This document shows, one piece after another, positions 5,840 through 43,273 of a stretch of 64,000 bases of DNA (positions within the stretch are counted from its first letter, which is position 1; each line of letters opens with the position of its first letter). The position numbers were made by a program, and so were the translations under genes. The notes beneath the pieces were generated by a model that was not told where the DNA came from, made no database searches, and saw nothing but the letters and a program-made list of their open reading frames with translations. Origin of the DNA: Polyangia bacterium (lineage in GTDB: Bacteria; Myxococcota_A; Polyangia; Palsa-1104); assembly GCA_039923495.1 (NCBI GenBank), contig JBDTCO010000042.1, positions 7,925 through 71,924 of the forward strand. Direction: 5' to 3'.

Positions 5840-5957
5840 GAGAACTCCTTCGCGATACCGTATCGGCTTTTTCTGGACGACGAAAGATTATTAAGCTGGC
5901 CGACGCTCTGTACAGAATGGCTTGGGCCCGGGGTGGATTGGGATTGTCGTCAGGTGC

Positions 5958-11829: not shown

Positions 11830-11836
11830 CTCGTAG

Positions 11837-12718: not shown

Positions 12719-12753
12719 GTTGCCCGATGAGTTGCCCGATGAGTTGCCGATGA
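12712..12753. repeat. Tandem 12-bp repeat (CCGATGAGTTGC, about 3.5 copies) across the DUF58 stop / BatA-like start junction
   Basis: Read directly: copies at 12712-12723, 12724-12735 and 12736-12747, then a partial copy lacking one C. Each copy contains ATGA. Confidence 0.9.
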
Positions 12754-18634: not shown

Positions 18635-19477
18635 ATGAAGATCCGCGTCGTGCCCGAAGCCCGCTCGCTCGTGCCGGAGTCCGTCGAGGGGGCAACGGTC
18701 GTCGTCATCGACACGCTCCGCGCCACCACCACCATCGCCTGCGCCGTGGCGTGCGGGATCGTCGTCGAGACCGTCGCCTCCATCGCCGAGGCCAAGCGGC
18801 GACGCGGACCGCGCGTGCTCATCGCCGGCGAGCGCGGCGGCAAGAAGCTGCCCGGGTTCGATCTGGGCAACTCGCCCGTCGATATCGAGGCCGCTGCCCG
18901 CGGCACGGCCTCGCCCTCTGGGCGCGATGAAGGCCAGGCCGCTGCCCGCGGCACGGCCTCGCCCTCTGGGCGCGATGAAGGCCAGGCCGCTGCCCGCGGC
19001 ACGGCCTCGCCCGCTGGGCGCAATGAAGGCCAGGGACCCTCGCTCGGTGGCAAGAAGCTCGTGCTCACCACCACGAACGGTACCGGCGCCATCGCGCGCA
19101 GCGCCGCCGCTCGCGCGATCTACGTGGGCGCGCTCGTGAACGCCGCCGCGGTCGCGCGCGCCGTCTCGAACGCCGAGTCGCTCGTGCTGGTGTGCGCCGG
19201 GCGCACCACCGGCGTCGCGCTCGAAGATCTCCTCGGCGCGGGCGCGATCATCGCGGCGCTGCCCGCGGGCAGCTTCGAGGAGTCGCTACTGTCCGATGGC
19301 GCGCGGCTCTCGCTCGACCTGTTCATCCGCAGCAAGAAGCGGCTCCATGCGTTCCTGCGCGAGTGCGAGAGCGGCCGCAACCTGTTGCGCATGGGCGCAG
19401 AGGCCGACGTGAAGCTATGCGCCGAGCTCGATCGCAACGACGTCGCGCCGCGTCTCGTGCGTGGTTGCTTCAGGTAG
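18635..19477 (+). CDS. comB: 2-phosphosulfolactate phosphatase with an internal repeat insertion
   Basis: VVVIDTLRATTTI, GERGGKKLPGFDLGNSP and LTTTNGTGAI are the ComB family motifs. The gene starts 4 nt after the TPR gene stop. Confidence 0.8.
   Translation: MKIRVVPEARSLVPESVEGATVVVIDTLRATTTIACAVACGIVVETVASIAEAKRRRGPRVLIAGERGGKKLPGFDLGNSPVDIEAAARGTASPSGRDEGQAAARGTASPSGRDEGQAAARGTASPAGRNEGQGPSLGGKKLVLTTTNGTGAIARSAAARAIYVGALVNAAAVARAVSNAESLVLVCAGRTTGVALEDLLGAGAIIAALPAGSFEESLLSDGARLSLDLFIRSKKRLHAFLRECESGRNLLRMGAEADVKLCAELDRNDVAPRLVRGCFR
18890..19033 (+). repeat. In-frame 48-bp tandem repeat x3 inside comB
   Basis: Copies at 18890-18937 and 18938-18985 are identical. 18986-19033 differs at a few positions. 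Encodes (AAARGTASPSGRDEGQ)x2 plus AAARGTASPAGRNEGQ, between the GFDLGNSP and TTNGT motifs. Confidence 0.95.
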
Positions 19478-20621
19478 CGCTGATGTTTGCGATGTCGCGA
19501 CGCTGCACGGTGTAGCGCTCGAGGACGTCGGTGAGCATGTGCGCGCCGAAGCCGTGACCCGGGGGCACCGGCGTCATGCGCGTGCCGGGCGCATGATCGA
19601 GCCTCGCATCGGTGAGGTCGTGCTCGAGGCTGCGGGTCGGCACGGTGGACTCGAAAAAAAGCGCGCCTTCGACGCGTGCGACGAACGCGCGGCCGAGCGA
19701 GGACAGCACGCCCGACTCGCCGACCATGCAGCCGAGCTGCCAGCCGAGACCAGCGCGACGCGCGCGCGCGACGAGGCGCATGGTGCCGAAGATGCCTCCG
19801 CACTTCGAGAGTCGCAGGTTGAAGAGATCGACGGCGCCGGTCTGAATCGCGCGCTCGGCGTCATCGAGCGTGCAGAGGCTCTCGTCGAGCATGACGACCG
19901 TGCCATCGCGACGGAGCTGGGCGCAGCCGGCCAGGTCGCGCTCGGCGAGCGGCTCCTCGATGGACGAGAGCTGGAGGCTGCGCAGGAGCACGCGCGCGCT
20001 CTCCACGTCGAAGACACCGTTGGCGTCGCCGCGGAGGTTCGCGTCGGGAAAAACGCGGCGCAGCGCGGCGACGCGCGCGCGATCGTTGGCGGCGCCGAAA
20101 CCCACCTTCACCTTGAGATCGAGCACGTCGTGAAGCTCGCCTGCCCTCGAGAGCGCGCCCTCGAGATCGTCTCCGATGGTGAGCGTCTGACGAACGTGCT
20201 CGAACGGCTTTTCGCGCAGCAGGCCGGCGTACTCGGGGACCGCGGCGACGGCGTCCAGGATCGGCCGCTGCTCGCGGCGAGCGTGCGCGTCGAGGATCGC
20301 GAGCTCGAGCGCGCACGCCGCGGCGAGCTGCGGTGCGCGCTCGCCGCCGAGCTCGCGCGCGAGATCTCGATCGGCGAGATCTCGCGCCGCGAAGGCCAGG
20401 TCGGGCTGCTCTTCCGGTACGACCCCGGACGACAGCGCGGACAGCACGGACGCGACCGTCTCGCCGGTCACGTACTCCCGAGGGACCGACTCGCCCCAGC
20501 CTCGGCTGCCATCCGAGAGCTCGACCTCGACGATGACGTTGTCCGCCACGTTGCGCGGGCTGCGTGCGTGCCCGAACTGGTATCGCATCGGGATGCGGAC
20601 GTGTGACGCGGAGACCTTCAC
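19470..20621 (-). CDS. Enolase-superfamily enzyme, muconate-lactonizing-enzyme subgroup (dipeptide epimerase / N-acylamino-acid racemase-like)
   Basis: KxK motif LKVKVG, metal ligands in GDANG, IEEP and MLDES, and a second catalytic Lys in LRLSKCGG. GTG 20621 overlaps the upstream TGA (GTGA). Confidence 0.75.
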   Translation of the reverse strand: MKVSASHVRIPMRYQFGHARSPRNVADNVIVEVELSDGSRGWGESVPREYVTGETVASVLSALSSGVVPEEQPDLAFAARDLADRDLARELGGERAPQLAAACALELAILDAHARREQRPILDAVAAVPEYAGLLREKPFEHVRQTLTIGDDLEGALSRAGELHDVLDLKVKVGFGAANDRARVAALRRVFPDANLRGDANGVFDVESARVLLRSLQLSSIEEPLAERDLAGCAQLRRDGTVVMLDESLCTLDDAERAIQTGAVDLFNLRLSKCGGIFGTMRLVARARRAGLGWQLGCMVGESGVLSSLGRAFVARVEGALFFESTVPTRSLEHDLTDARLDHAPGTRMTPVPPGHGFGAHMLTDVLERYTVQRRDIANISAT

Positions 20622-21415
20622 GGAGCGAGCAGCGAGACCAGCCGATCCGCGAGCAGCGCGGGCGCCTCGAGCACGAGCGCGTGCTCGCCCGGCAGGCGCA
20701 CGATCTGGCGCGGTGCGAGCAGGCGCTCGACCGTGGCGTTGTCGACGATGCGATCGGAGTCGGCGAGCAGCGTCGTGATGGGCACCGAGAGGCCCGGCAG
20801 CACGGAGATCGCGCGATCGAGGAGGCCACGGCTCGGGGCGAGGAACGAGCGCGGCTGCGTGCGCCACGCCAGCTCGTCGGCGCGGATGCGCTGCGTCACC
20901 TCGGGATCGGACGAGAACACGTCGACATCGAACGGTAGCGCGACCGGATCCTCGGTGCCCGCAGCGAGGGCAGCGGCGCGCGCGCGGATCTGTGGTGCCA
21001 TCGCGAGGCCCGGTGCAGCGAGGAAGATCTGATCGGGTGGATCGATGCTCGCGGAGACGAGCGCGAGACGCGCGCCCCAGCACCAGCCGAGCAGCGCGAC
21101 GCGATGACCCTTGCTGCGGAGGTGCGCCTGCGCGACCCGGATGTCGTGGAGCCAGTGATTGGGCTCGGCCGTACCAACGAGGGACGTGGCTCGACCCGAG
21201 CCGCGGCGATCGACCGCGACGCTCGCGATGCCACGCTCTGCCAGGGCCTCGGCGAGCGGTTCGAGCCAGCCCGCGTGCGACATGACACCGTGGATGAGCA
21301 CGATACTGTGGCGTGCGCCCGGCACGTCGCGGATGTGCAGCGCGGCGGCCTCGTCGACGAGCCCCGGCGGCTCACCCGCACGCTCGATGGCGAACACGGC
21401 AGATCCTCCGGTCAC
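20618..21415 (-). CDS. Alpha/beta-fold hydrolase with a Cys at the nucleophile elbow (GWCWG)
   Basis: IVLIHGVMSHAGW oxyanion region. The nucleophile elbow reads G-W-C-W-G (21074-21088) instead of GxSxG. The GTG start overlaps the upstream stop. Confidence 0.7.
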   Translation of the reverse strand: MTGGSAVFAIERAGEPPGLVDEAAALHIRDVPGARHSIVLIHGVMSHAGWLEPLAEALAERGIASVAVDRRGSGRATSLVGTAEPNHWLHDIRVAQAHLRSKGHRVALLGWCWGARLALVSASIDPPDQIFLAAPGLAMAPQIRARAAALAAGTEDPVALPFDVDVFSSDPEVTQRIRADELAWRTQPRSFLAPSRGLLDRAISVLPGLSVPITTLLADSDRIVDNATVERLLAPRQIVRLPGEHALVLEAPALLADRLVSLLAP

Positions 21416-22014
21416 TGGCTCGGCCTCTTCGGCGGGACGGACGTGGTCTTCATGCTCTTCCCATCATGGAGTCGCTCGATCATCCGAGCGAGCAGGACTT
21501 CGACTTGCGGCGCGGTGCAGGCCTCGACCTCGGCCTCGACGTGGATCATCTCGCCACCCACGAGCGCCCACGCTGCGGTGCGCTCGAGAGCGCCGGTCTC
21601 CGTGACGTTGCGCACGATGAACGCGTGCTGTGCGCCGGCCACCGCGATGCTCGCGACCTGGGCGCGCGGGGACGTGAGGCGTGCGCGCATCGCATCGAAC
21701 GCGCTGGTGGCGGCGGGTTGACGACCGGTGAGCACCTCGCCGATCACGTCGTCGTGGCCGTAGTAGTGGCGGCACTCGTCGAGGAGCTGCGACTGACCCT
21801 TCGGGGCGCCAGCGCCGCCGCATGCCTGCGCGACGAGCATGTCATCGACGGTGCTCGCGAGGTCCGCGGGGCAGCACACCGGAGGCGCATGCGGGCAACA
21901 CGCGGGGCTGCGATCGAACGTCTGGCACTCTGCAGCGCCCGCAACACCCGACAGCAAAAGAGCGGGCAGCAGCAGCCCCGCCCGCAGTCCCATCGCCCAC
22001 CGCCCGGACTTCAT
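21412..22014 (-). CDS. Secreted Cys-rich protein of unknown function (200 aa)
   Basis: ATG 22014 gives the signal peptide MKSGRWAMGLRAGLLLPALLLSGVAGAAE, then CQTFDRSPACCPHAPPVCCP. The C-terminal half has normal globular composition. The upstream part of track ORF 21412..23160 is Arg-rich shadow. Confidence 0.5.
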   Translation of the reverse strand: MKSGRWAMGLRAGLLLPALLLSGVAGAAECQTFDRSPACCPHAPPVCCPADLASTVDDMLVAQACGGAGAPKGQSQLLDECRHYYGHDDVIGEVLTGRQPAATSAFDAMRARLTSPRAQVASIAVAGAQHAFIVRNVTETGALERTAAWALVGGEMIHVEAEVEACTAPQVEVLLARMIERLHDGKSMKTTSVPPKRPSQ

Positions 22015-22070
22015 CACGCCCAAGCGTAGCACCCGCGGAGCGCCGCGAAAGGTGGGAGGAGGTCCCACCT

Positions 22071-23327
22071 TCAGTCCACTCGCACCGTCGGCAAGAGACC
22101 CCCGCCGAGCGTGATGTTGATGAGCGGCGTGTCGCTCGCGCGCGCGATCCCGCCCGCGTATTTGCAGCCGAAGAGGAACGGGTTCCAGTTGTAGAACTTG
22201 TCGTGCACTCCGCCTGCGTGTGGGACGCGCAGCTTCGGCAGCACGGCGTAGGCCTGCTCGATCCACGGGCTCTGCTCGGCGTCGTCGAGCGCGGCCTGCC
22301 GATCGGTGTCGCTCGCGAGGCCGGGCAGCAGCACGTGCAGACCGCCATGGCTCTCGCCCTTCTTGAGGACCACGTGATCGCCATGCGTGCGCAGCTGCGC
22401 GATGCGCTCCGCGTCGAGGATCCTGGTCGGCAACACGGGGCACTCGCCGCGCGACGCCGGCCAGTTCGCGCACAGGTGCGCGAGCAAGGTCTTCGAGCTC
22501 GCGAGGTACGAGCGCAGCGGGTTGACCATGCACACCTTCCCCCCGCGATATGCAGCGACGAGCGGCGCCACCTCGCTCGCGCGCTCGAGGAGCTCGGTGA
22601 AGAGCGCGCGGCGATACACGAGATCGATGACGCGACCGTCGTGCCGCAGCTTGCCGCCGGAGAACTCGAGCGCGCGCGGATCGCACACGATCGTCGGACA
22701 GCCGTGCTCCTCGAAGAACTCCGCGATGCGCGCATGCTCGAAGCGCGTCTTCTGTCCGGGCCAGTCGACGACGGCGATGGTCGGCGTGAGATCGCGACCG
22801 CCGTACTCCGCATAGCAGGCGAGCAGCGTGGCGTGCAGCTGCGGGAGCTGGCGCTCGATGCGCAGGTGCGCGGCGTGCTTCGCGATGTGCGGCAGGGTCA
22901 TCAGGCACTCGGCGACGTGGTCCGAGAACGCCATCATCGCCGGGCTGTCGGAGTTGTACTCGACGTACTTGATCGCACCGTCGACGAAGATGGCGTCTGG
23001 CCGCGCGAGCACCGAGATCGTGCGATAGCCCGGATCGATCTCGACCCAGTCGCGCGCCTCGGGGCGCAGGTGCAACGAACGCATCATCGCCGGATCGCGC
23101 AGCGCTTCCTGCGCGACGTCCTCCACCGTGAGCGCGAGGTCCTCCGCGCTGCGGATCCACGTATCGAGCGCCTTGCTCTCCGCGTAGAACGGCACGCAGT
23201 ACGTCGGCAGGAGGCCGTCGCCGAAGTAGATGCCTCGACGGGTGAGCTCGCTGGTGAGCGCGCGCTCGGCGGCCACGATGGCGTCGTGCTCGTGGAGCTC
23301 GCCGATGAGTTGTTGGAGCAGGCTCAT
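22071..23327 (-). CDS. Circularly permuted ATP-grasp (type 2) amide ligase, paralogue 2
   Basis: LARPDAIFVDGAIKYVEYNSDSPAMMAF and VVLKKGESHGGLHVLL match the same pattern as 5958..7307. ATG 23327 (MSLLQQL). Confidence 0.6.
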   Translation of the reverse strand: MSLLQQLIGELHEHDAIVAAERALTSELTRRGIYFGDGLLPTYCVPFYAESKALDTWIRSAEDLALTVEDVAQEALRDPAMMRSLHLRPEARDWVEIDPGYRTISVLARPDAIFVDGAIKYVEYNSDSPAMMAFSDHVAECLMTLPHIAKHAAHLRIERQLPQLHATLLACYAEYGGRDLTPTIAVVDWPGQKTRFEHARIAEFFEEHGCPTIVCDPRALEFSGGKLRHDGRVIDLVYRRALFTELLERASEVAPLVAAYRGGKVCMVNPLRSYLASSKTLLAHLCANWPASRGECPVLPTRILDAERIAQLRTHGDHVVLKKGESHGGLHVLLPGLASDTDRQAALDDAEQSPWIEQAYAVLPKLRVPHAGGVHDKFYNWNPFLFGCKYAGGIARASDTPLINITLGGGLLPTVRVD

Positions 23328-23400
23328 ACGATCACAGGGCGCAAGCGGGTTCAGCTTACATCGTTCCGCCCGACCCCCCGCGTGTATAAAGAAGGCCGCC

Positions 23401-24150
23401 GTGAACGTGTTCGTGCAGCCGCACCTCGACGACGTGGCCTGGTCGTGCGGCGGGACGGTGCGGCGGCTCGCGAGGCAGGCGCCGTGCCGCGTCGTCACGG
23501 TGTTCGATCGCAGTCCCGAGCCGTCGAGATCGCTGTCGCCGTTTGCCCGCATGCTCCACACGGCGTGGGGCGCGGGTCGCGATCCGCTGCCGATGCGACG
23601 CGCCGAGAACGAGCGCGCGCTGCGAATCCTCGGCGCGACGGGCGAGGGCCTGTCGATCCACGAGGCGCTGTACCGCGATCCGCCCGTGTCCTCGAGCGGC
23701 GAGCTTTTGACCCCACCCGGGCCTGCGCTCGCCCCGCTGGTGCGCGAGATCGCGGAGCGCCTCGTCGTGGCGTGCCGTGGTGCGACGCGGGTGTTTCTCC
23801 CGCTCGGCATCGCCACGCACGTCGATCACATGCTGTGCTACGCGGCGCATGAGCGGCTGCGTGCGACCGGTCTGGTGGTGCATCACTACGAGGACTTTCC
23901 CTACGTGACGCGCTTGGGAAAGCTCGTGGCGCGGCTGAACATGGTTCCGGTGCTGGCGTCGTTCACCGTCGACATCGACGACACGCTGCCCGCGCGCATC
24001 GAGGCCATACGAGCGTATCCATCGCAGCTTGGTCCCATGGGCATGGACCGTCCCGACGAGCTCGTGCGCACGCACGCAGCGTCGGTCGTGGAGCGAGGGC
24101 ATGGAGAGCGCTTCTGGACGCTCGATCCACACGACTCCGCGCTGCGGTAA
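23401..24150 (+). CDS. PIG-L/LmbE-family deacetylase
   Basis: GTG 23401. N-terminal VQPHLDDVAWSCGGT (the PHxDD...GGT zinc-site motif) and a later HVDH motif. Confidence 0.75.
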   Translation: MNVFVQPHLDDVAWSCGGTVRRLARQAPCRVVTVFDRSPEPSRSLSPFARMLHTAWGAGRDPLPMRRAENERALRILGATGEGLSIHEALYRDPPVSSSGELLTPPGPALAPLVREIAERLVVACRGATRVFLPLGIATHVDHMLCYAAHERLRATGLVVHHYEDFPYVTRLGKLVARLNMVPVLASFTVDIDDTLPARIEAIRAYPSQLGPMGMDRPDELVRTHAASVVERGHGERFWTLDPHDSALR

Positions 24151-24162
24151 CATCTTCGTTCC

Positions 24163-25776
24163 GTGGACTACGATGCAGTCGTAAAGCGCTTCGACCAGAC
24201 GCTCGCACGACCTGAGCTCGCGCAGCACGACACGCTCGTGCGACTCCTGCGGCAGCTCGGGGGCGGTCGCTTTGGCAAGGAGCACGGCCTCGACGCGCTC
24301 ATGTCGCGCGAGCTCTCGTATGCCGGGCTCGTGGACGCCTTCCGTCGGAACGTGCCGCTGCGCGACTTCGAGGGCCTGCGCGCGTACATCGAGCCGTGCC
24401 CGCAGGACCTGTCGGGCGAGGTGCCGCTGTGCCTCCTGCGCACGTCGGCGTCGACGGGAAAACCCAAGCTCATCCCCTACACGGCGGCGTTCCGCGACTC
24501 CATCAAGCGCGCGCACGACGTGTTCTCCGCTGCGATGTTCCGCGATGCTCCGACGCTGCCGCTGGGCGGTGGAACGCCGCGCGCCGTCGGTCTCTACCAG
24601 CTCTCTTCGACGAGGCAGGAGGCGCTCGGGTTGCCCGTCGACTCGTACGTCTCGCGGCTCTACGACGTGGCGCTCGCGGAGGATCCATTCTTCTACGCGT
24701 TCGACGACACCGGGCCGGGCCGCGCGATCTGCACGATCCCCGACGCGCGCGAGCGGCTCTTCCAGATGGCGCTCGCATCGCAGGGCTGGGATCTGCACGC
24801 GCTCCGCGCCACGAACCCGACGACGCTGCTGCTGCTCTCGCGTGTCCTCGCCGACGAGACGGAGCGCTTCTGCCGCGAGATCGCCGCCTTCGACGTCGAG
24901 CGTGCACGCAGGCTCTCGTCGCTGGGTCGGCCGATCTCTGCGCGCGATCTGTGGCCGAACCTCGCGCTGCTCGTCACGTGGCGCGGCGGCACGTGTCACC
25001 TGTTCGAGCCGCACCTGCGTGCGGCGTTCGGGGACGTGCGCATCCGCGCGCCCATCTACGCCGCGTCGGAAGGCGTCGTCGCGCTGCCTCTCGCCGACGC
25101 CGATCTCGGCGGGGCACCTGCCGTCGAGTCCACGTTCTTCGAGTTCCTGCCCGAACCCTTCGATGGCACGAGCACGCTGCTCCTGCACGAGCTCCAGCAG
25201 GGCAAGCGCTACGAGCTCATCTTCACGTCGCCCACCGGGATGACGCGGTACCGCATCGGCGATCTCGTGCAGGTGGACGGCCTGGCGAACGGCACGCCGA
25301 CGTTCCACTTCCTCGCGCGCAAAGGTCGCACGAGCTCCGTCACCGGCGAGAAGCTCACCGAGCTCCAGGTCGAGCAGGCGGTGTCGAACGCGTGTTCGCG
25401 GCTGCACCTCTCGCCTGTGCACTTCATGCTGTCGCCACAGATCGAGGCGCTGCCGTACTACGTGCTGTCCGTCGATTTTGGCACCGGGCTTGGCACCGGG
25501 CTCGGCGCCGGGCTTGGCGCCGACACTGCCGCTGTGTCGCAGCTGGCCGCCGCGGTCGACGAGCAGCTCATGCAGCTCAACGTCGAGTACGAGGCGAAGC
25601 GGAGCTCGGCGCGGCTCGGTCCGCTCGTGCTGCGTCGCTGCAAGCGCGGCTCGTTCGAGGCGCTGCAGGCGAGCGGCCTCTCCGGTGGCGGCGCGGTCAA
25701 CTTCAAGCTGTCGCACCTCACGGGCGAGCCCGTGCACGAGCGCCTCCCGCCCGACGTGAAGGAAGATCAGACGTGA
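24163..25776 (+). CDS. GH3-family acyl-acid amido synthetase-like adenylating enzyme, copy 1
   Basis: N-terminal GH3 pattern (...FRRNVPLRDFEGLRAYIE...LLRTSASTGKPKLIPYT), central YRIGDLV, C-terminal KR. Contains a Gly-rich insert GTGLGTGLGAGLGA. Confidence 0.7.
   Translation: MDYDAVVKRFDQTLARPELAQHDTLVRLLRQLGGGRFGKEHGLDALMSRELSYAGLVDAFRRNVPLRDFEGLRAYIEPCPQDLSGEVPLCLLRTSASTGKPKLIPYTAAFRDSIKRAHDVFSAAMFRDAPTLPLGGGTPRAVGLYQLSSTRQEALGLPVDSYVSRLYDVALAEDPFFYAFDDTGPGRAICTIPDARERLFQMALASQGWDLHALRATNPTTLLLLSRVLADETERFCREIAAFDVERARRLSSLGRPISARDLWPNLALLVTWRGGTCHLFEPHLRAAFGDVRIRAPIYAASEGVVALPLADADLGGAPAVESTFFEFLPEPFDGTSTLLLHELQQGKRYELIFTSPTGMTRYRIGDLVQVDGLANGTPTFHFLARKGRTSSVTGEKLTELQVEQAVSNACSRLHLSPVHFMLSPQIEALPYYVLSVDFGTGLGTGLGAGLGADTAAVSQLAAAVDEQLMQLNVEYEAKRSSARLGPLVLRRCKRGSFEALQASGLSGGGAVNFKLSHLTGEPVHERLPPDVKEDQT
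25480..25521 (+). repeat. 12-bp in-frame tandem repeat (GGCACCGGGCTT-like, about 3.5 copies) inside GH3 copy 1
   Basis: Read directly. Encodes GTGLGTGLGAGLGA. Confidence 0.85.
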
Positions 25777-27350
25777 GCTTCGACGATGCACTCCTCGATC
25801 CCGAGACCGCGCAGCGCGAGACGCTGCGTCGCCTCATCACCCACAACCAGGACTCGGCGTACGGACGCGATCATGGCTTTGCCGAGATCACGACGTACGA
25901 GCAGTACGCGCAGCGCGTCCCGGAAGCCACGTACGACGCGCTCGAGCCCTACGTCGCGCGCATGCTCGAGGGAGAAGCCGGCGTGCTCGTGAGCGACGAG
26001 GTCGTTTACCTGGCGACGTCGAGCGGCACGACCGGCCGCAAGAAGTACGTGCTCATCAACCCGGGCTTCTACGACGAGACGGTCCGCTGGATGGCGCTCG
26101 AGCAGCGCTTCCTCGAGGCCGCGCACCCCGAGGTCGCGGGCCGGTCCGAGCTGCGCTACGTGAACCGCATCGAGGGCTCGATGCCGACGGGCCTGCCCAT
26201 CGGCGCCGTCAGCGGCTGGTTCTACGGGCAGGAGGTCGCGCGCGGCACGTACACGGAGCTCGTGCCGTACGACGCCTACCAGATAGGCTCGGTCACGGGC
26301 CGGAACTTCGCGGTGCTCGCGTTCGCGCTGCGTCGCAGCTTCGTGCGGCTCTCGGCGGTCAATCCTTCGACGCTGCTGCTCGTCGCGCAGCGCCTCGTCG
26401 CCGATGGTCCCCGGCTGGTGCATGCGGTGCGTGACGGCGGCCTCTCCCACGAGGAGATCGATCCGGCGGCCGCTGCTGCACTTTCTCCGCTGCTCCCGCC
26501 CGATCCTGCGCGCGCGCAGGCGCTCGAGGAGATCCTCGCCCGCGACGGCAAGCTCACGCCGGCCGCCGTGTGGCCCGAGCTGTCGATCCTGTGCTGCTGG
26601 ATCAACGCGGGCGCGGGCCTCTATCGCCAGGATCTCGCCGACACCTTCGGTCCGATCCCCGTGTGGGACTACGGCTACACGTCGAGCGAGGGCCGCGTCA
26701 CGGTCACCGCCGATGATCGCGGTGCCGGTGTCCCGCTGCTGCAGTCCGTGTTCCTCGAGCTCAAGTCCGAGCACGGCGTCATCCCGCTGTTCGCCGCGAA
26801 GGACGGCGACGAGGGCGAGCTGCTCGTCACCAACTCGCGGGGCCTCTATCGCTACGGCATGGGCGACCTCGTGTCGGTGGTCGGCCGCATGCACAAGGCG
26901 CCGCTGCTGCAGTTCCGTCGCAAGACGAGCGCGGTCGCGTCGCTCACCGGCGAGAAGCTCACCGAGGAGCAGGTCGGTCGTGTGGTCGAGCAGATGCTCA
27001 CGAGCCGCGGCCTGCGCTCGCGCTTCTTCTGCCTCGCGCCCGAGTGGGGCCAGCCCCCTGGCTACGTGCTGCTACTCGAGCTGTCGACGAGCATCGAGCA
27101 GCGTGTCCTCGACGAGCTCGCGGGTGCCCTCGAGGTCGGCCTCGTGGATGCGAACGCCGAGTACGAGAAGAAGCGCGAGACGCTTCGCCTCGCCGCGCCG
27201 ATCGTGCAGCTGCTCCCCGCCGGTGCCTACGATGCCTACGTCGCCGCGCAAGCCGCCGCTGGTCGGGAGACCGCCCGCATCAAGACCCCGCGGGTCACGA
27301 TGGACACCAAGCTGGCGCCTCAGTTCCCCGCGCTCGCCCGCTCGAAATAG
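25773..27350 (+). CDS. GH3-family acyl-acid amido synthetase-like adenylating enzyme, copy 2
   Basis: GTG 25773 overlaps the upstream TGA (GTGA). YGRDHGFAEITTYEQYAQRVPEATYDALEPYVARMLEGE...LATSSGTTGRKKYV, YRYGMGDLV and EYEKKR are classic GH3 motifs. The 5' part of track ORF 24396..27350 is off-frame shadow of copy 1. Confidence 0.78.
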   Translation: MSFDDALLDPETAQRETLRRLITHNQDSAYGRDHGFAEITTYEQYAQRVPEATYDALEPYVARMLEGEAGVLVSDEVVYLATSSGTTGRKKYVLINPGFYDETVRWMALEQRFLEAAHPEVAGRSELRYVNRIEGSMPTGLPIGAVSGWFYGQEVARGTYTELVPYDAYQIGSVTGRNFAVLAFALRRSFVRLSAVNPSTLLLVAQRLVADGPRLVHAVRDGGLSHEEIDPAAAAALSPLLPPDPARAQALEEILARDGKLTPAAVWPELSILCCWINAGAGLYRQDLADTFGPIPVWDYGYTSSEGRVTVTADDRGAGVPLLQSVFLELKSEHGVIPLFAAKDGDEGELLVTNSRGLYRYGMGDLVSVVGRMHKAPLLQFRRKTSAVASLTGEKLTEEQVGRVVEQMLTSRGLRSRFFCLAPEWGQPPGYVLLLELSTSIEQRVLDELAGALEVGLVDANAEYEKKRETLRLAAPIVQLLPAGAYDAYVAAQAAAGRETARIKTPRVTMDTKLAPQFPALARSK

Positions 27351-27351
27351 A

Positions 27352-27864
27352 TCACTTCTTCTTTGCCGAGAGGCGTTTCTCGATCGTCTTCTCGAGATCG
27401 GGAATCTCGAGCACGCCGACGATGACCTCGGCCACGTCGCCTTCCTCGTCGAGGAGGAGGGATGTCGGGAGCGCTTCGAGGTTGCCGAGCGTGGCGACCG
27501 TCTTGTTCGGTGTGGACGCGAGCACCGGGTAGCTCACCTGGTGCTTCGCGAGGAACTGCTGCACCAGTGCAGGGTTCTCGTCGATGTCGATGCCGATGAC
27601 CTCGAAGCCGCGAGCCTTGTACTTGTCGCGCAGCTTCGACAGCGCGGGCATCTCGCCGACGCACGGCGAGCACCACGTGGCCCACAGGTTCACGAGCGTG
27701 AGCTTGCTGCCCACGAGCGGTCCGAGCTTCGTGCGCTTGCCATCGAGCGTCGACAGGAAGAGCTCCTGCTTTCGCAGGTCGAGCTTCTTCGGAGCGGCCT
27801 TGGGCGCGGCGAACGACGTGCTCGCCAAAAGGAGGGACGTCGCGACGAGGAGAGAGCGCATCAC
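27352..27864 (-). CDS. Secreted TlpA-like thiol:disulfide oxidoreductase (thioredoxin fold)
   Basis: Signal peptide MMRSLLVATSLLLASTSFA. Active site WATWCSPCVGEMP. The start overlaps the stop of the upstream gene. Confidence 0.85.
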   Translation of the reverse strand: MMRSLLVATSLLLASTSFAAPKAAPKKLDLRKQELFLSTLDGKRTKLGPLVGSKLTLVNLWATWCSPCVGEMPALSKLRDKYKARGFEVIGIDIDENPALVQQFLAKHQVSYPVLASTPNKTVATLGNLEALPTSLLLDEEGDVAEVIVGVLEIPDLEKTIEKRLSAKKK

Positions 27865-28949
27865 GAATAAGGATAAGGCAAGTAGCGAGGCGGCAACAGG
27901 CCGAGATCTTCGACGAACGGCACGTGCTCGAGCGCGATCTTCCCGAAGTACAGGCGCGAGAGATCACCGCCGGTGAGCACGTACTCCTCGACGAGCACGC
28001 GGCCCCACAGGTAGGCGTGGTCCTTGATGTAGCCGCCCGGTGCCTCGGTGTGACACAGGCCACGCTTCACGCGTCTCGTCATGGTGAACGACTCGGGGTG
28101 CGAGAAGCCGAGGTCGCGCAGCTCGGCGTAGACGTCGCGAAACGAGCTCGTGAGCGCGGCCATCGCGGCGATGACGCGCGCGGCGAACACGCGCGTGCGC
28201 GCCGTGTCGATGTAGCCCATGCGCTCCTCGTTGATGACGGCGAGGCCCTCCTCCGTCATGAGGTAGCTGGGCACGGCACCGACGGCGAAGATACGATATG
28301 GCTGGCTGTAGCCGTTGGCGGCGCGTAGCACGTGCGTGTCGATCTCGTGCACGACGAGGCGCTTCATCTCCTCCATGCTCGCCTGCAGATCGGCGCGCAG
28401 GTTGATGAGGCGGTTCGTGGGATCGGTGTTGGTCGCAGACAGGTTCGGCCTCACCTCGACGCGCCAGTCCTCGAGGCCGTACTGGCGGAGGCGCGCGGTG
28501 ACGAGCTTCACCTGATCGGTCGCGCGGAAGGGCCGCTCGACAGGGCGTTGCGACTGCTGCGGCTGCTTGAGGATGCGGCGCGCGAGCTGGATGACGTGCT
28601 CGGGCGCGCGCGGGTATAGCTGCTGCGCCCAGTGCGACTCGTCGCCGATGTTGAGCCGCAGGCCGATGCGCTTGACGAGGTACTCGCGCGCCTGCGTGAA
28701 GAACATGCCGACGCCGTAGCCCGGTAGATCGAGCGACTGCAGCTTCTCGATGTGGGCCGCGAGCAGCGCCTCGTCCTGGTGCGGGTACTCGAAGATCGGG
28801 TTGTAGTTCGGATCGAGCGCGACCTTCGCCATCTCCGCGGCCGAGTTGATCGGATCGAGGTGGTGCAGCGGCAAGGCCTCGGACGCGGCGAGGCAGAGCA
28901 GGCGGTCGGCCTCCTCGAGAGGGAGTGGTGCGGTCGAAGCCATGCTCAA
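27861..28949 (-). CDS. DUF1704 / QEGLA-motif protein (MATCAP-like metallocarboxypeptidase fold)
   Basis: HEIDTH (HExxH), EEGLAV (the QEGLA-like motif) and YIKDHAYLWG. 4-nt overlaps at both ends. Confidence 0.65.
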   Translation of the reverse strand: MSMASTAPLPLEEADRLLCLAASEALPLHHLDPINSAAEMAKVALDPNYNPIFEYPHQDEALLAAHIEKLQSLDLPGYGVGMFFTQAREYLVKRIGLRLNIGDESHWAQQLYPRAPEHVIQLARRILKQPQQSQRPVERPFRATDQVKLVTARLRQYGLEDWRVEVRPNLSATNTDPTNRLINLRADLQASMEEMKRLVVHEIDTHVLRAANGYSQPYRIFAVGAVPSYLMTEEGLAVINEERMGYIDTARTRVFAARVIAAMAALTSSFRDVYAELRDLGFSHPESFTMTRRVKRGLCHTEAPGGYIKDHAYLWGRVLVEEYVLTGGDLSRLYFGKIALEHVPFVEDLGLLPPRYLPYPYS

Positions 28950-30175
28950 AAGTAGTCCGGTGGCTCTTCTGCCACTGAGTAGAGCGCCATCTCCGTCGAC
29001 ATGGGTAGCTCGGGCATGTCTCGACGGTGGAACGCGAGTCGCACCCCGGCCTCGCGCACCGAGATGCGCAGCGTGGTGGCGAGGCGCGCGAGGTCGCGCA
29101 CGGTGGAGCGGACGTTGGTGCCGATGTACTCGCGCGTGTCGTCAGCGGTGTCGAGGATGCCGCGGAAGAGCGCGTCGGCCGCGAGCACCGCGCCGGTGGT
29201 GGCCGCGAAGTTGGGGAGCACCGGCGTGCCGCTCGCGACGAGGACCTTCTCCGCGTGCGTGCTGACCGAGCGCGCCGCCGCCTCGACGACGATGCGGGCG
29301 CGCAGGCGCCCGACGTTGTCGATGGTCACGGCGTCGTTGGACGCGAGGACGAGCGCATCGACGGGCAGCGAGTAGAACTCGTCGAGCGTGATGAACATGT
29401 GCGACGGATCGAGCGACAGCGACACGCGCGCGCCGGTCTCGAGCACCGAGGGGTTGAGGCCGCCCGCCGAGTACACGCCGGCCGAGGCCGAGCCGACCGC
29501 CACGACGGTGGCCCCCATGAGCGCGAGCAGTCGCCCGATCTGCGTGCCGAACGGACCCGCGCCGAGGATCGCGACGGTCTGCTGGCGGTGAAACAGAAAC
29601 TCGCCCATCTCCATGGTCGCGTGCGCGACGGACAGCGCGACCTGCTGCTCGCGCAGCGTGAGGCCGTCGGCGTCGGGCTGATCGAGGACGCGGTTGTACA
29701 GCTCCCAGCGCTCCATGCTCCAGCCCTGGCTGCGACGCACGGCCTCCATGCGCCACGGGAGCTTGTTCGCCTCGACGATGCGCTCGAGCATCACGGCCGG
29801 CACGTTCAGGTCGGGCCCGAGCGAGAGCACGGAGCCGAGGAGCGGCTTGAGCGAGGTGAGGAAGCGGCCGAGGACCTCTTCGATCTCGGGCGCCTGCGGA
29901 TCGTAGTTGAGCCCGAGGCGCGCGCCGCCGATGGGCACGCGTGCGAGCTGGTAGCGAATGGTGCCGATGCGCGCGAGACCGGCGAGATCGGTCCACTGCT
30001 GGTTTCGACGCACGCGGATGCCGCCGAACGCGACGCCCTGCGCGAGCGTGTCGATGATCGCGTAGCCGGGCGCCGCGGTGACGGGATCTCGCCAGTTGAT
30101 GACGAGCTCCGGCTCGGGGCCTTGCGTCATGGGCCCCCGATCCGAAAGACGCCGATCTTCTGACACGCTAGACAT
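28946..30175 (-). CDS. Glu/Leu/Phe/Val-dehydrogenase-family protein with the active-site Lys replaced by Arg
   Basis: FGGIRV substrate loop. The family signature reads V-P-I-G-G-A-R-L-G-L-N-Y-D-P (29897-29938). Rossmann motif AILGAGPFGTQIG. Start is ATG 30175 (8-nt overlap) or ATG 30130. Confidence 0.7.
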   Translation of the reverse strand: MSSVSEDRRLSDRGPMTQGPEPELVINWRDPVTAAPGYAIIDTLAQGVAFGGIRVRRNQQWTDLAGLARIGTIRYQLARVPIGGARLGLNYDPQAPEIEEVLGRFLTSLKPLLGSVLSLGPDLNVPAVMLERIVEANKLPWRMEAVRRSQGWSMERWELYNRVLDQPDADGLTLREQQVALSVAHATMEMGEFLFHRQQTVAILGAGPFGTQIGRLLALMGATVVAVGSASAGVYSAGGLNPSVLETGARVSLSLDPSHMFITLDEFYSLPVDALVLASNDAVTIDNVGRLRARIVVEAAARSVSTHAEKVLVASGTPVLPNFAATTGAVLAADALFRGILDTADDTREYIGTNVRSTVRDLARLATTLRISVREAGVRLAFHRRDMPELPMSTEMALYSVAEEPPDYF

Positions 30176-31793
30176 CCTCGAAACGCAGAATATCACCGTT
30201 CGCCGAGGAACCTGAATTTCGGTTCAGCAACGCATCGATGAGCCCCTTGTGTCGCTCGCGGACCTGATCGCGGCGTACCTTCAGGCTCGGGGTCAGCTCG
30301 CCCGACGGGATGGAGAAGGGCTGCGGCGCGACGCCGATGGCCACGATGCGCTCGTGACGACCGAGCTCCTCGTTGAGCAGCCGGACGTGCAGCGTGAGGT
30401 GTGCCCGCAGCTCGTCCGGCGTCATGAGGGCGGTGCGAAGACGTGGATCGGAGATGGCGTCGAGCACCGCGACGACGTGTGCGTGACCCTCGCCGAACAC
30501 CGCCGCGTGACGCACGCCGGGCAGCGAGGCGAGTCGGGCCTCCAGCGAGGCGGGGTGCACCTTCTTGCCCGTCGACAGGACGAGCAGATCCTTGCGGCGC
30601 CCGGTGATGTGCAGGAAGCCGTCCTCGATGCGGCCGAGATCGCCGGTGCGCACCCCATCGTCGCCGACGAAGAGGTCGGAGGTAGCCTGCGGATCGTCGA
30701 GGTACCCGATGCAGCGGAAGCCCTTGCCGAACAGCAGGACCTCGCCGGTGTCGTCGACCTCGACGCGCGAGCCCGGCAAGGCCTTGCCGACCGCGCCCAT
30801 GACCGAATCGCCCGGTGCGTTGTAGCTGCTCGCCCCGCTGGTCTCGGTCATGCCGTACATCTCGTGCACGGGAATCCCGAGCTTGAAGAGCGCGCGGTGC
30901 GCCTCGATCGCGAGCGGCGCGCCCGTCGACAGCGCGAGCCGGACGCGCTCGAGGCCGAGCGTGGAGCGGACCTCGTGCGACTGCCCGTGCAGCGCAGCGG
31001 CTGCCGTCGCGAGCGTCTGCCACTCGGCGGGCACACCCATGAAGAACGTGGGCCGCACGGCCGCGACGGCCTCCGTGAGACGTCGACCGCGCGGGAAGAC
31101 CACGGAGTAGCCCGACGCCATCGGCAGCACGACGCTCATGAAGATCTCGGCGAGGTGCGCGAAGGACAGGTACGAAAGGTGTCGATCGGACGGCCGGTGC
31201 GCGCGCACCTCCGTCATGCGCCGCGCCGCGCGCAGCATGTTGCCGTGCGAGAGCAGCACGCCCTTCGGCACGCCCGTCGATCCGGACGTGAAGATCACGA
31301 ACGCGATGCGATCTGCGGGCGTGCGCACCGCACCGGGTGGATCGAGCGGCGCGGCCAAGGGTGGCGCGTCATCGATGATCGCGACGTGTGGATCTTGCGG
31401 ACGTGCAGGATTGACGGGCTCGACGAGCTTCGGCGCGAGCCAGTCGAGCAGATCGGGATCACCCATCGCGAGCGCGACGTGCGCGCGCGTGACCAGCGTG
31501 CGCAGCTGCACGGGCGGCGTCGACGGCTCGATCGACACCACGACACCTCCCGCGAGCAGCACGCCGTGCACGAGCGCCGGCACGCGCGCGCGCGTTCGAC
31601 ACACGACGAGCACCGCCTGACCGAGCCGCAGCCCGAGCGCGCGCAGGCGATTCGCGACCTGCTCTGCCTCGAGGTGAAGCTGGAGGTACGTGACGGGCGG
31701 ATCACCGCCGGTCTCGAGGGCGGAGGCCGTTGGCCGTAGCTGCGCCATCTCGGCGAGTGCTGCGCCGATCGTCGCGGGGTGCTCCCACATCAC
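30168..31793 (-). CDS. AMP-dependent synthetase/ligase (ANL superfamily, fatty-acyl-CoA-ligase-like)
   Basis: FTSGSTGVPKGV, YGMTET, GDLGRIEDGFLHITGRRKD and a C-terminal SLKVRR Lys. Confidence 0.85.
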   Translation of the reverse strand: MMWEHPATIGAALAEMAQLRPTASALETGGDPPVTYLQLHLEAEQVANRLRALGLRLGQAVLVVCRTRARVPALVHGVLLAGGVVVSIEPSTPPVQLRTLVTRAHVALAMGDPDLLDWLAPKLVEPVNPARPQDPHVAIIDDAPPLAAPLDPPGAVRTPADRIAFVIFTSGSTGVPKGVLLSHGNMLRAARRMTEVRAHRPSDRHLSYLSFAHLAEIFMSVVLPMASGYSVVFPRGRRLTEAVAAVRPTFFMGVPAEWQTLATAAAALHGQSHEVRSTLGLERVRLALSTGAPLAIEAHRALFKLGIPVHEMYGMTETSGASSYNAPGDSVMGAVGKALPGSRVEVDDTGEVLLFGKGFRCIGYLDDPQATSDLFVGDDGVRTGDLGRIEDGFLHITGRRKDLLVLSTGKKVHPASLEARLASLPGVRHAAVFGEGHAHVVAVLDAISDPRLRTALMTPDELRAHLTLHVRLLNEELGRHERIVAIGVAPQPFSIPSGELTPSLKVRRDQVRERHKGLIDALLNRNSGSSANGDILRFEDV

Positions 31794-32698
31794 GAGTGCG
31801 TGGCGCTCCGTGAGAAGACCGCGGCCTCGATGATGTTGGCGAGCTCGAAGCGACGCGCGTTGCGCAGCGTGAAGTGGTTCGAGTCGCGGATGCGCAGGAA
31901 GCGCGCGAGGCCACCCGGCACGACGCCGAGGAACGCGGCCACGTGCTCGTCGGGAACATCCTCGGCCTCGATGACGAGGGTGGGGACGGCCAGCTGCGCG
32001 AGCGCAAGGAGCGGCACGCGGTTCGGGAACCGCTCCGTCGGCACGCGGAAGACCGGCGGCGACTGCCTGGAGCCTTCGTCATCGGACGCGATGCAGGCGT
32101 CGATGTAGCTCTCCTGCAGCGCGGAGTCGGTGTGCGCGTGCGCCGCGTCGCCGAAGAGCTTCTGCCAGCGCTTGCGCTGGAACTCGGCGGTGTACGGGAT
32201 GTACGTGTTCTCGCGCTGTGCGCTCTCGCGCTCCGCGATCATGGTGTCGAGCAGCGGCCCGGACGTGGCGCCCGCCAGGTAGCAGAGCGATGACGGGTTG
32301 TTGAGGATCGCCAGGCTCACGTGCGGCACGTCGAGCGCCGCGGCGAGCACCTGGATCGCGCCACGCGACGAGCCGAACAGCGTGAGCGGCGCGGGCCAGC
32401 GGCGGCGCGCGTCCTCGGCCACGGCGCGGATGTCCTCGACGGAGTCGTCGAGCGTCTGCAGTGCCCCTGGTGCCGGCGCCGACGACATGCGTGCGTCACG
32501 CTGCGACTTGCCGAAGTTGCGGTGATCGAGCGCGACGGCACGCAGCCCGCGCGACGCGAGCTCCCGGAGGAACGAGTAGCCCGGCACGTCGAGGTCGTAC
32601 GTCGGCTCGAGCGGCGCCGCGATGCCGTGCACGAGCACGACGACGGGCGCATCGAGCGGCAGCCCCTCGCGCTCGGCCACGCGGCAGCGCAGCGTCAC
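31790..32698 (-). CDS. Alpha/beta-fold hydrolase
   Basis: VVVLVHG oxyanion region and nucleophile elbow FGSSRGA (GxSxG). Start uncertain: GTG 32698 is chosen, and the frame is open to about 32739. The stop overlaps the AMP-ligase start. Confidence 0.65.
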   Translation of the reverse strand: MTLRCRVAEREGLPLDAPVVVLVHGIAAPLEPTYDLDVPGYSFLRELASRGLRAVALDHRNFGKSQRDARMSSAPAPGALQTLDDSVEDIRAVAEDARRRWPAPLTLFGSSRGAIQVLAAALDVPHVSLAILNNPSSLCYLAGATSGPLLDTMIAERESAQRENTYIPYTAEFQRKRWQKLFGDAAHAHTDSALQESYIDACIASDDEGSRQSPPVFRVPTERFPNRVPLLALAQLAVPTLVIEAEDVPDEHVAAFLGVVPGGLARFLRIRDSNHFTLRNARRFELANIIEAAVFSRSATHS

Positions 32699-32742
32699 GC
32701 CGTCGCGCGTCGAGACCTCGTAGTCCGCTCTGGTGATGGCGC

Positions 32743-33549: not shown

Positions 33550-33552
33550 GTC

Positions 33553-38603: not shown

Positions 38604-38617
38604 TGGGCTCCCGGTAT

Positions 38618-41211: not shown

Positions 41212-41274
41212 GGACGCATCCTTTTGTCGTTCGTTTGGGTTGTCGTTCGTTTGTCGTTCGCAGAAGCCATGGGT

Positions 41275-43272: not shown

Positions 43273-43273
43273 C

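Follow-up and report, generated by a model that had tools for sequence, protein, structure and literature searches.

A GH3-type ligase, a lipase-like hydrolase and an enolase-superfamily enzyme with an invariant active-site arginine form a phylum-spanning gene trio within a conserved Myxococcota locus

The stretch of DNA analysed here, called the window throughout, is the whole 64,000-nucleotide (nt) piece of a Polyangia bacterium assembly (GCA_039923495.1, contig JBDTCO010000042.1, positions 7,925 to 71,924), and the genes in question are two divergent, tightly coupled units within it. The minus arm encodes a circularly permuted ATP-grasp ligase, a secreted Cys-rich protein, an alpha/beta hydrolase and an enolase-superfamily enzyme, and the plus arm encodes a PIG-L/LmbE-type deacetylase followed by two GH3 acyl-acid amido synthetases, GH3-1 and GH3-2. 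Because the G+C content of the window is about 69%, raw open reading frame (ORF) lists are noisy; the periodicity of G+C at third codon positions (GC3) agrees with all seven genes at the coordinates that an initial annotation of this DNA had given them (Table 1). The GTGA start/stop overlaps (21412-21415, 20618-20621 and 25773-25776) and the 73-bp divergent spacer were likewise as described there, so that the minus arm is joined by two 4-nt overlaps and one 53-nt gap, the latter between the ATP-grasp and Cys-rich genes, and a gap of 12 nt separates the PIG-L gene from GH3-1. Searches with hidden Markov models upheld the earlier family assignments, with all GH3 domains and the GSP_synth domain of the ATP-grasp protein above cutoff and with matches that support the PIG-L, hydrolase and enolase-superfamily calls. 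The seven genes are the middle of a larger conserved locus of three operons, about 16-18 kb long (19470-35849), which is flanked by ComB and has ComA and gamma-glutamyltranspeptidase (GGT) genes at a distance of 11-14 kb. The cluster limits first proposed, 19470-27350, are too narrow, since conservation extends to about 35.8 kb and the locus has links to ComB, ComA and GGT.

Table 1. Coordinates of the locus genes, the divergent spacer and the linked sulfolactate-type genes in the window
Feature	Coordinates	Strand	Matches, motifs and remarks
ComA ((2R)-phospho-3-sulfolactate synthase)	5069..5887	-	Pfam 216 bits
Gamma-glutamyltranspeptidase (GGT)	7351..8988	+	Pfam 432 bits
ComB (2-phosphosulfolactate phosphatase)	18635..19477	+	Pfam 189 bits; convergent, overlaps enolase stop
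MLE-subgroup enolase-superfamily enzyme, Arg variant	20621..19470	-	Pfam MR_MLE_C 121 bits
Alpha/beta hydrolase, Cys nucleophile (GWCWG)	21415..20618	-	Hydrolase_4 81 bits
Secreted orphan Cys-rich protein	22017..21412	-	Signal peptide; motif CxT[FY]DRxxxCCPHxPPxCC
Circularly permuted ATP-grasp ligase	23327..22071	-	GSP_synth 39.2 bits (cutoff 29.3)
Divergent intergenic spacer, ATP-grasp gene / PIG-L gene	23328..23400		73 bp
PIG-L/LmbE-type metal-dependent deacetylase	23401..24150	+	Pfam PIG-L 35.5 bits (cutoff 28.2)
GH3 acyl-acid amido synthetase 1 (GH3-1)	24163..25776	+	TSASTGKPK, YAASEG, YRIGD
GH3 acyl-acid amido synthetase 2 (GH3-2)	25773..27350	+	TSSGTTGRKK, YTSSEG, YRYGMGD
Secreted TlpA/ResA-like thiol-disulfide oxidoreductase (redoxin), last operon gene	27352..27864	-	Redoxin 77 bits, ResA 98 bits
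MATCAP/DUF1704 (QEGLA) metallocarboxypeptidase-like protein	27861..28949	-	Pfam 140 bits, TIGR02421 153 bits
Glu/Leu/Phe/Val-type amino-acid dehydrogenase	28946..30196	-	
FadD-like AMP-binding adenylating enzyme	30168..31793	-	AMP-binding 206 bits
Second alpha/beta hydrolase (Hydrolase_4)	31790..32755	-	Adjoins GH3-2 orthologue in L003, L004, L008
HpcH/HpaI-type class II aldolase	32743..33549	-	Pfam 69 bits, GarL-like 120 bits
UGSC-family selenoprotein	33553..34089	-	NCBIfam 134 bits (cutoff 125); in-frame UGA 33802-33804
588-aa protein, UGSC partner	34083..35849	-	C-terminal ~360 aa always accompany UGSC

Each of the two GH3 proteins matches three GH3 Pfam domains (GH3, GH3_M and GH3_C) over the gathering scores, the N-terminal domain of GH3-2 reaching 186 bits, and their PDB matches are plant GH3 structures only (E 1e-25 for GH3-2), GH3.12 among them. 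Both carry nucleotide-binding motifs and are predicted to be ATP-dependent acid-amino acid ligases. The pair shares 26% identity and therefore does not stem from a recent tandem duplication; the two proteins are best classed as ancient paralogues. Members of the GH3-1 orthogroup were found at 42-83% identity, and the pairing with GH3-2 persists down to 54%. An exact-sequence look-up of the window GH3-2 returned no record, and scans with an alignment of its orthologues recovered 3 loci in genomes and 3 in metagenomes, showing that the orthogroup is rare; the next-closest GH3s outside it are 30-36% identical to GH3-2.

When genomes were scanned with an alignment of distant GH3s, 80 loci were obtained from Planctomycetota, Verrucomicrobiota, Binatia, Omnitrophota, Acidobacteriota and Chloroflexota, and also from Gaiellaceae, Gemmatimonadota, Thermodesulfobacteriota and the cultured gammaproteobacteria Neiella and Corallincola. 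A homologue of the window enolase (28-38% identity) is present in 64 of the 80 distant GH3 loci, and an enolase gene lies immediately upstream of the GH3 gene on the same strand in 51. Homologues of the hydrolase occur in 49 of the 80, and all three genes are colinear in at least 25. The GH3 of the Neiella trio is 31% identical to GH3-2 versus 24% to GH3-1, and by this comparison GH3-2 can be assigned to the trio type. In the window the trio is split over the two arms, hydrolase and enolase on the minus arm and GH3-2 on the plus arm. The trio-type GH3-2 on one arm, with its enolase and hydrolase partners on the other, is the strongest evidence that the two arms belong together, and the functional tie between them that had been suspected is borne out by dozens of genomes from other phyla in which these genes form a unit.

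The enolase-superfamily enzyme retains the KxK motif (LKVKVG, K170/K172) at strand 2 and the metal ligands D199, E223 and D246, which, together with its fold, it has in common with N-succinylamino-acid racemase/o-succinylbenzoate synthase and the L-Ala-D/L-Glu epimerases. In contrast to these MLE racemases and epimerases, the position of the strand-6 catalytic Lys is occupied by Arg270 (FNLRLSKCGG), which stands opposite the Lys of N-I-K-L-M-K when the protein is aligned with 3ik4 and 3jva. The FNLRLSKCGG segment is unchanged in the three orthologues compared, all 64 distant enolases carry N-x-R-x-S-K-C-G-G, and Arg at the strand-6 position was thus seen in 67/67 enolases examined (3 orthologues and 64 distant GH3-linked homologues). 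The DxD motif, which in dipeptide epimerases binds the N-terminal ammonium group, is replaced as well, since D-L-D of 3ik4 aligns with E-S-T in the window enzyme and the 64 distant enolases have E-G-S/C at this place. The initial annotation had noted KxK plus K motifs in a dipeptide-epimerase-like enolase. The KxK part stands, but the Lys lies 3 residues past Arg270, which holds the catalytic position, and the comparison with dipeptide epimerases is doubtful with the strand-6 Lys replaced by Arg and the DxD missing; on the same two grounds a canonical MLE racemase or dipeptide epimerase was ruled out. The closest solved structures are 3ik4, 3jva, 1tkk and 2zc8, and NCBIfam equivalog scores were all far under their cutoffs. 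The characterised relatives nearest to the window enzyme, namely N-acyl and N-succinyl amino-acid racemases, DgcA and dipeptide epimerases, all use N-acylated amino acids. The enolase superfamily would gain a new subgroup in which an invariant Arg stands in place of the textbook catalytic Lys.

The third member of the trio is closest to monoacylglycerol lipases and lysophospholipase L2. Its GWCWGA segment aligns onto the GHSMGG nucleophile elbow of monoacylglycerol lipases (Mycobacterium tuberculosis monoglyceride lipase), in line with the Cys-nucleophile hydrolase described earlier. The Cys is kept in 5 orthologues, which share an Asp (DSDRIVD) and a His (PGEHAL), so these residues are the putative partners of the Cys at the nucleophile elbow. 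Ser takes the place of the Cys in L003, and among the distant hydrolases about two thirds use Ser as the nucleophile and the other third or so use Cys.

Several kinds of genes neighbour the trio in the distant loci, including those for a patatin phospholipase (7 loci), an LplT-Aas-type fusion of MFS, PlsC acyltransferase and AMP-binding domains (4 loci), a long Ser/Thr kinase (about 13 loci), a small protein that binds cyclic nucleoside monophosphates (cNMP; 8 loci) and a ParA-like ATPase (13 loci). The trio operon of Neiella marina J221 (L062, 1870-8450) opens with a 679-aa Ser/Thr kinase and closes with a PP2C phosphatase. The trio-linked kinase has a conserved N-terminal domain of about 360 aa that belongs to no known family, and trio operons led by such a kinase recur in L071, L056 and about 10 other loci. 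No report of a GH3-enolase-hydrolase operon, or of a GH3 combined with a mandelate racemase or any enolase-superfamily member, was found in the literature searched, coverage of which was incomplete.

Bacterial GH3s number in the thousands, and OlsH is to our knowledge the only one with a demonstrated function. OlsH forms N-acyl ornithine from a free fatty acid and ATP alongside the alpha/beta-hydrolase acyltransferase OlsI (PMC12493201), and a GH3 of the legionellol cluster has been proposed to attach ornithine (PMC5640695). The OlsH/OlsI ornithine-lipid pathway of Singulisphaera acidiphila (PMC12493201) resembles the window locus in that a GH3 lies beside an alpha/beta-hydrolase-fold enzyme; it N-acylates an amino acid with ATP and a free acid, and the nucleotide-binding motifs are conserved in the window GH3s. 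The OlsH operon as described differs in having no enolase-superfamily gene and in having the methyltransferase OlsG, whereas the Cys-nucleophile hydrolase is a feature of the window. The possibility that the GH3s studied here are OlsH orthologues was ruled out on score (70-128 bits against a cutoff of 620 bits). The trio would represent a large GH3 subfamily, distinct from OlsH, that has an Arg-variant enolase and a lipase-like hydrolase as obligate partners, a three-enzyme system that is present in cultured strains.

Synteny in relatives, which had been put forward as a check on the cluster, was borne out: at least six independent contigs from a small clade of uncultured Myxococcales keep the same gene order at 63-92% protein identity. 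The full arrangement from ComB to the UGSC partner is seen in L009, the P0006 contig, L010 and the paired contigs L001+L013 and L002+L014. In more distant relatives at 51-61% identity (L003/L005, L004, L006, L008 and the P0013 and P0017 contigs), the GH3-2 orthologue lies beside the second hydrolase, HpcH and UGSC with its partner, and the enolase and hydrolase are close; adjacency of enolase and GH3-2 is kept in L006, and HpcH and the second hydrolase accompany GH3-2 through four arrangements (including L003, L004, L008 and the P0017 contig). The P0209 contig keeps the genes for the small secreted protein, the hydrolase and the enolase as a unit, together with the GH3 pair, HpcH, hydrolase and redoxin, and has a class I/II aminotransferase in place of the dehydrogenase, a swap that fits a step aminating a 2-oxo acid. 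In L010 (a European Nucleotide Archive contig of 96 kb) the AMP-binding, GH3-2 and ComB genes are split or fused and a dehydrogenase-redoxin fusion spans the MATCAP gene; this looks like frameshift errors of long-read assembly, not biology.

A single base separates the GH3-2 stop from the end of a convergent operon that contains 4-nt overlaps and in which the transcription order is 588-aa protein, UGSC, HpcH/HpaI aldolase, second Hydrolase_4 enzyme, FadD-like enzyme, dehydrogenase, MATCAP and redoxin. The redoxin is conserved in L002, L009, L010 and the P0006 and P0209 contigs, and a MATCAP gene adjoins those for ComA and a Glu/Leu/Phe/Val (ELFV) dehydrogenase in L016. The best NCBIfam matches of the FadD-like enzyme are FadD11 and long-chain fatty-acid-CoA ligases, all under cutoff, and with this adenylating enzyme the earlier tally of three ATP-dependent ligases becomes an undercount. 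HpcH is 64-84% identical in L002, L003, L004, L008, L009 and L010, and the second hydrolase gave nothing useful when compared with the PDB by sequence. An aromatic meta-cleavage role for HpcH and this hydrolase was ruled out, as no dioxygenase or hydratase is present. A 562-aa ORF on the minus strand (31790-33478), which would make the two proteins a fusion, was also rejected because roughly the first 230 of its codons are read in a different frame from the genuine HpcH gene. The off-frame half of this ORF nevertheless has 52-54% tblastn identity to relatives in the shifted frame, a caution for high-GC DNA.

The two Pfam halves of the UGSC protein join at the TGA, which provides the U of UGSC (…SGD-U-GSCTSWC…), a position held by Cys in the L003 orthologue. 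Starting 11 nt past the UGA, a 7-bp hairpin with a UGUAU loop resembles a bacterial selenocysteine insertion sequence (SECIS) element. The UGSC gene is also split by gene callers in relatives (P0006 and P0017 contigs). Its 588-aa partner has no match in Pfam, NCBIfam or the PDB. In L003, paralogues of this partner at 11664-12743 and 13289-14401 (55% and 42% identical) each stand beside a UGSC gene, and the P0017 contig has two such pairs. The C-terminal ~360 aa of the partner may be the 'Unknown_1' domain that was seen fused to UGSC proteins in ocean metagenomes (PMC2398784).

Besides GSP_synth, the ATP-grasp protein falls below the other Pfam cutoffs (CP_ATPgrasp_2, 29 bits against 32; CP_ATPgrasp_1, 15.6 against 23.1), and comparison with the PDB by sequence gave no match. 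Since GSP_synth alone passes its cutoff, the structure was modelled with AlphaFold2 from 32 homologues at a predicted local distance difference test (pLDDT) score of 93.9. The top Foldseek matches of the model were 2hgs, 8fbz, 3n6x, 2io7 and 7uk8, with probability 1.0 and template modelling (TM) scores of 0.65-0.78, so the modelled enzyme adopts the circularly permuted fold of glutathione synthetase and glutathionylspermidine synthetase (GspS), in agreement with the circular permutation given in the initial annotation. The same fold is found in eukaryotic-type glutathione synthetase, glutathionylspermidine synthetase and E. coli YgiC/YjfC, which are 12-20% identical to the window protein. Unlike the glutathione synthetase and GspS systems, the window enzyme has no amidase domain, its conserved partner is ComA and not GshA, and it is associated with GGT.

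Homologues of the ATP-grasp protein (34-52% identity) lie within 7 kb of ComA in 12 distant loci, 9 of which have GGT too. The ATP-grasp gene is translationally coupled to ComA in L011 and L012, and a class III aminotransferase gene follows it in 4 distinct loci. L016 has an array of genes for a pyridoxal phosphate-dependent decarboxylase, a methyltransferase, an L-amino-acid-ligase-type ATP-grasp protein, a window-type ATP-grasp protein, an HpcH-like aldolase, GGT, ComA, a dehydrogenase and MATCAP. The window ComA and ComB score well over the Pfam cutoffs and are shared with coenzyme M and sulfolactate biosynthesis; the window-type pair differs from that pathway in being coupled to ATP-grasp, GGT and sometimes a class III aminotransferase, and no ComC, ComDE or Xcb genes were seen. 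ComB keeps its position in L009, L010, L013 and L014 and is near ComA and the ATP-grasp gene in L011. A ComA plus ATP-grasp arrangement was not described in the literature searched, again with incomplete coverage. In Myxococcota the conserved tie of the ATP-grasp enzyme to ComA, ComB and GGT suggests an amide metabolite that contains a sulfonate and has yet to be described. Within the window ComB gene there are 3.1 copies of a 48-bp repeat unit with 97% identity (18888-19034), which place GTASPSGRDEGQAAAR three times in mid-protein. The GTASPSGRDEGQAAAR insertion splits the Pfam match of ComB in two, and the L009 ComB (234 aa) is without it. A long (GGT)n microsatellite lies at about 300-350 of L014, at the start of the ATP-grasp orthologue of the metagenome-assembled genome (MAG) GFS_6713.

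The PIG-L protein has intact metal and base motifs, H8-x-D-D11 (PHLDD) and H140-x-D-H143 (HVDH), and shares the HxDD and HxDH motifs and the Pfam PIG-L domain with the teicoplanin pseudoaglycone deacetylase Orf2* and with MshB/BshB. It differs from these systems in that its gene is not conserved in window-type loci: it is restricted to the window and to L001, a relative at 92% identity, in L009 and L010 the ATP-grasp and GH3-1 genes diverge across about 130 bp without it, and in the P0006 contig, which has no PIG-L gene, a thioesterase gene occupies its position. It is thus an accessory, lineage-specific insertion. The secreted Cys-rich protein is an orphan that matched no Pfam or NCBIfam family, and just 5 representative clusters were found in 1.84 billion proteins, all with the motif in Table 1. 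Its gene keeps its position in L009, L010, L013 and L014, and its single-sequence AlphaFold model reached a pLDDT of 46.

Building on the gene content, order, folds, motifs and conserved neighbourhoods observed, we infer substrates, a step order and a product for the locus. The composite reading that we put forward tentatively, and would rate somewhat below an even chance, is that the locus builds an N-acyl amino acid or lipo-pseudopeptide, possibly sulfonated, independently of the ribosome, with less confidence still in either the sulfonate detail or the lipid detail taken by itself. Ribosome-independent amide chemistry, as the initial annotation had suggested, is the most economical reading of the locus. 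In a first step the lipase-like hydrolase, with a Cys nucleophile in the window, would release or transfer an acyl group. GH3-2 would then adenylate the free acid and link it to the amino group of an amino acid, a role suggested by the precedent of OlsH with its alpha/beta-hydrolase acyltransferase and by the proposal for the legionellol GH3. Finally the enolase would take the alpha-proton of the N-acylated amino acid, a substrate suggested by the substrate class of its closest characterised relatives, leading to epimerisation or to a one-base beta-elimination; with no second general base in place, the elimination is no less likely than the epimerisation. To judge from the lipase-like hydrolase and from the genes of lipid turnover near the distant trios, the acid may often be a fatty acid, and a FadD-like adenylase is encoded in the window itself.

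Several genes are added to this core in the Myxococcales clade, and the enzymes that they encode would extend or decorate the product. Among them are a second, deeply divergent GH3 and the glutathione-synthetase-fold ATP-grasp enzyme, apparently recruited from a ComA/ComB/GGT sulfolactate module, which might bring in a sulfonated building block. The aldolase and the amino-acid dehydrogenase could supply a non-proteinogenic amino acid. The FadD-like adenylase, the carboxypeptidase-like enzyme and the periplasmic redoxin with the orphan Cys-rich secreted protein are further additions, and the PIG-L deacetylase is one that belongs to the window's own lineage only. No genes for nonribosomal peptide synthetases, polyketide synthases or siderophore synthetases occur in the locus, and we expect rule-based detection of biosynthetic clusters to miss loci of this type. 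A ribosomally synthesized and post-translationally modified peptide was ruled out as the product, since the 53-, 73- and 12-nt gaps fit no precursor ORF.

A broader proposal concerns the trio itself. It may constitute an unrecognised pathway in at least 10 phyla that turns lipid-derived or other acids into N-acyl amino acids and passes these to a new enolase reaction, either an elimination with one base or an epimerisation assisted by the Arg, with the Myxococcales locus as an elaboration that uses sulfolactate-derived blocks. Ser/Thr kinases or cyclic nucleotides would often control the pathway. In this full form we consider the proposal possible but rather unlikely. If it were true, the trio could be a signalling-lipid or membrane-remodelling system.

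A number of observations weigh against a biosynthetic locus that makes an acylated and sulfonated amide. Against the OlsH model NF052613 the window GH3s score 71 and 70 bits and the trio GH3s from five other phyla 84-128 bits, all far from the cutoff. The strand-6 Arg speaks against a classical two-base racemase, so that the enolase step is uncertain. The genes for Ser/Thr kinases, PP2C and cNMP-binding proteins near the trio in other phyla could mean that it serves in signalling or regulation and not in bulk lipid synthesis. In the MAG MBR_H10.11 GH3-2 is on contig 40 and the ATP-grasp, GGT and ComA genes are on contig 76, which makes the joining of these modules specific to the window clade, and in the P0209 contig a methyltransferase gene takes the place of the ATP-grasp gene; for these two reasons the sulfonate link may not reach the GH3 chemistry. 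ComB overlaps the preceding TPR gene of a Bat-type operon in L009, and its tie to the locus is therefore only positional. Sequencing runs that contain the window sequence were soil-metagenome DNA only, with no RNA runs found.

Part of this evidence would be explained if the locus were a mosaic of two or three independent modules, namely the trio, the ComA/ComB/GGT/ATP-grasp genes and the HpcH/hydrolase/UGSC redox genes, which act on different substrates and have no common product. The separate contigs of MBR_H10.11 fit such a mosaic, as does the GH3-1 orthologue of this MAG, which lies about 24 kb from GH3-2 amid unrelated genes, and so do the methyltransferase that substitutes for the ATP-grasp protein, the variable presence of PIG-L and the Bat/MoxR operon that separates ComA and GGT from the locus in the window. 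Yet the ATP-grasp, Cys-rich, hydrolase and enolase genes form one closely spaced operon in the window clade, the arrangement is retained in at least six contigs at 63-92% identity, L016 combines genes from all three modules, and HpcH and the second hydrolase track GH3-2 across four arrangements. We regard independent modules as improbable, although they deserve serious attention.

The same three trio activities can be arranged as a shunt or salvage route in which the GH3 acylates, the enolase inverts and the hydrolase deacylates, so that D- and L-amino acids are interconverted or amino acids and peptide fragments are recycled, with GGT, MATCAP and PIG-L as further hydrolytic steps. The N-succinylamino-acid racemase pathway is an analogue of such a route. 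The three activities map onto the three steps, the enolase is most like N-acyl amino-acid racemases, DgcA and dipeptide epimerases, and hydrolytic enzymes are numerous in the locus. However, a two-base 1,1-proton transfer requires the Lys that is replaced by Arg in each of the 67 sequences, four ATP-consuming ligases fit salvage poorly, and the hydrolase is lipase-like and not amidase-like, which together make the shunt quite improbable in our view.

The order of an alpha/beta hydrolase, an MLE enolase and an adenylating ligase also parallels MenH, MenC and MenE of menaquinone biosynthesis, and the window-type trio has the same order of fold types as that segment. By analogy with the making of o-succinylbenzoate, the hydrolase and enolase would eliminate or dehydrate a cyclohexadienyl or other carboxylate and the GH3 would conjugate the resulting acid to an amino acid. 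There are weak NCBIfam matches of the hydrolase to MenH and of the enolase to low-GC and archaeal MenC (88-115 bits), a one-base dehydratase would tolerate loss of the second Lys better than a racemase, and GH3.12 (PBS3), whose structures are among the PDB matches of the GH3s, conjugates isochorismate in plants. The trio ligase is nevertheless an amide-forming GH3 and not a CoA ligase, MenD, MenF, MenB and chorismate-utilising genes were unseen in the neighbourhoods inspected, and every score is far under the family cutoff; we therefore give Men-like chemistry little chance.

Protein or peptide modification appears less probable again. The ATP-grasp and MATCAP proteins would be a ligase/peptidase pair that works at the C-terminus of a protein or peptide, comparable to tubulin tyrosine ligase and MATCAP, perhaps with the Cys-rich protein as target, and the GH3s would be further amidating enzymes. 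The MATCAP-family and ATP-grasp genes do co-occur, and the orphan secreted protein is always inside the operon, but the C-termini of the Cys-rich homologues are not conserved, the protein is exported while the ligases have no signal peptides, none of the three intergenic gaps fits a small precursor ORF, and in most phyla the trio occurs without ATP-grasp or MATCAP genes. As for a low-molecular-weight thiol or amino-sugar conjugate, which had been suggested at first and in which an MshB/BshB-like PIG-L enzyme would act on an N-acetylglucosamine conjugate, with cysteine or another acid attached by the ligases, the PIG-L family membership with intact metal ligands, the weak BshB1 and BshB2 matches (24 and 20 bits) and the glutathione-synthetase fold of the ATP-grasp enzyme are outweighed by cutoffs of 182-195 bits, the absence of PIG-L from most orthologous loci and of any glycosyltransferase or other partner gene from this one, and the closest solved PIG-L relatives, deacetylase 6iiy and the glycopeptide-tailoring teicoplanin Orf2* (E ~1e-6), so that an MshB/BshB thiol-pathway deacetylase was ruled out and the idea as a whole is hardly credible.

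Signals of expression were also looked for in the nucleotide sequence. A scan of 19300-27600, including the 73-bp spacer, found no sigma-70-like promoter, the terminator-like matches in the same range were all intragenic, and Rfam matched neither a riboswitch nor any other kind of RNA anywhere in the window. A perfect 7-bp GC-rich hairpin (GGUGGGA-CCUCC-UCCCACC in the mRNA; 22051-22069, minus strand) begins 1 base past the ATP-grasp stop, and as it lies within the 53-nt gap before the Cys-rich gene it could be a candidate intra-operon attenuator.

Beyond the locus, the Bat/MoxR-type operon between GGT and ComB (10726-18630, plus strand) encodes an AAA_3 MoxR protein, a DUF58 protein, a BatA-like VWA protein, a VWA protein with a GATase1-like domain and a TPR protein, and an operon of this type also neighbours the GH3-2 orthologue in the P0013 contig. 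On the other side, the GC skew is shifted in the 36-42 kb part of the window, and the region 38097-44122, with a cytochrome P460-like gene (38097-38816), genes for two NHL-repeat proteins (40003-42615) and one for an MbnP-like protein (43274-44122), seems to be unrelated to the locus.

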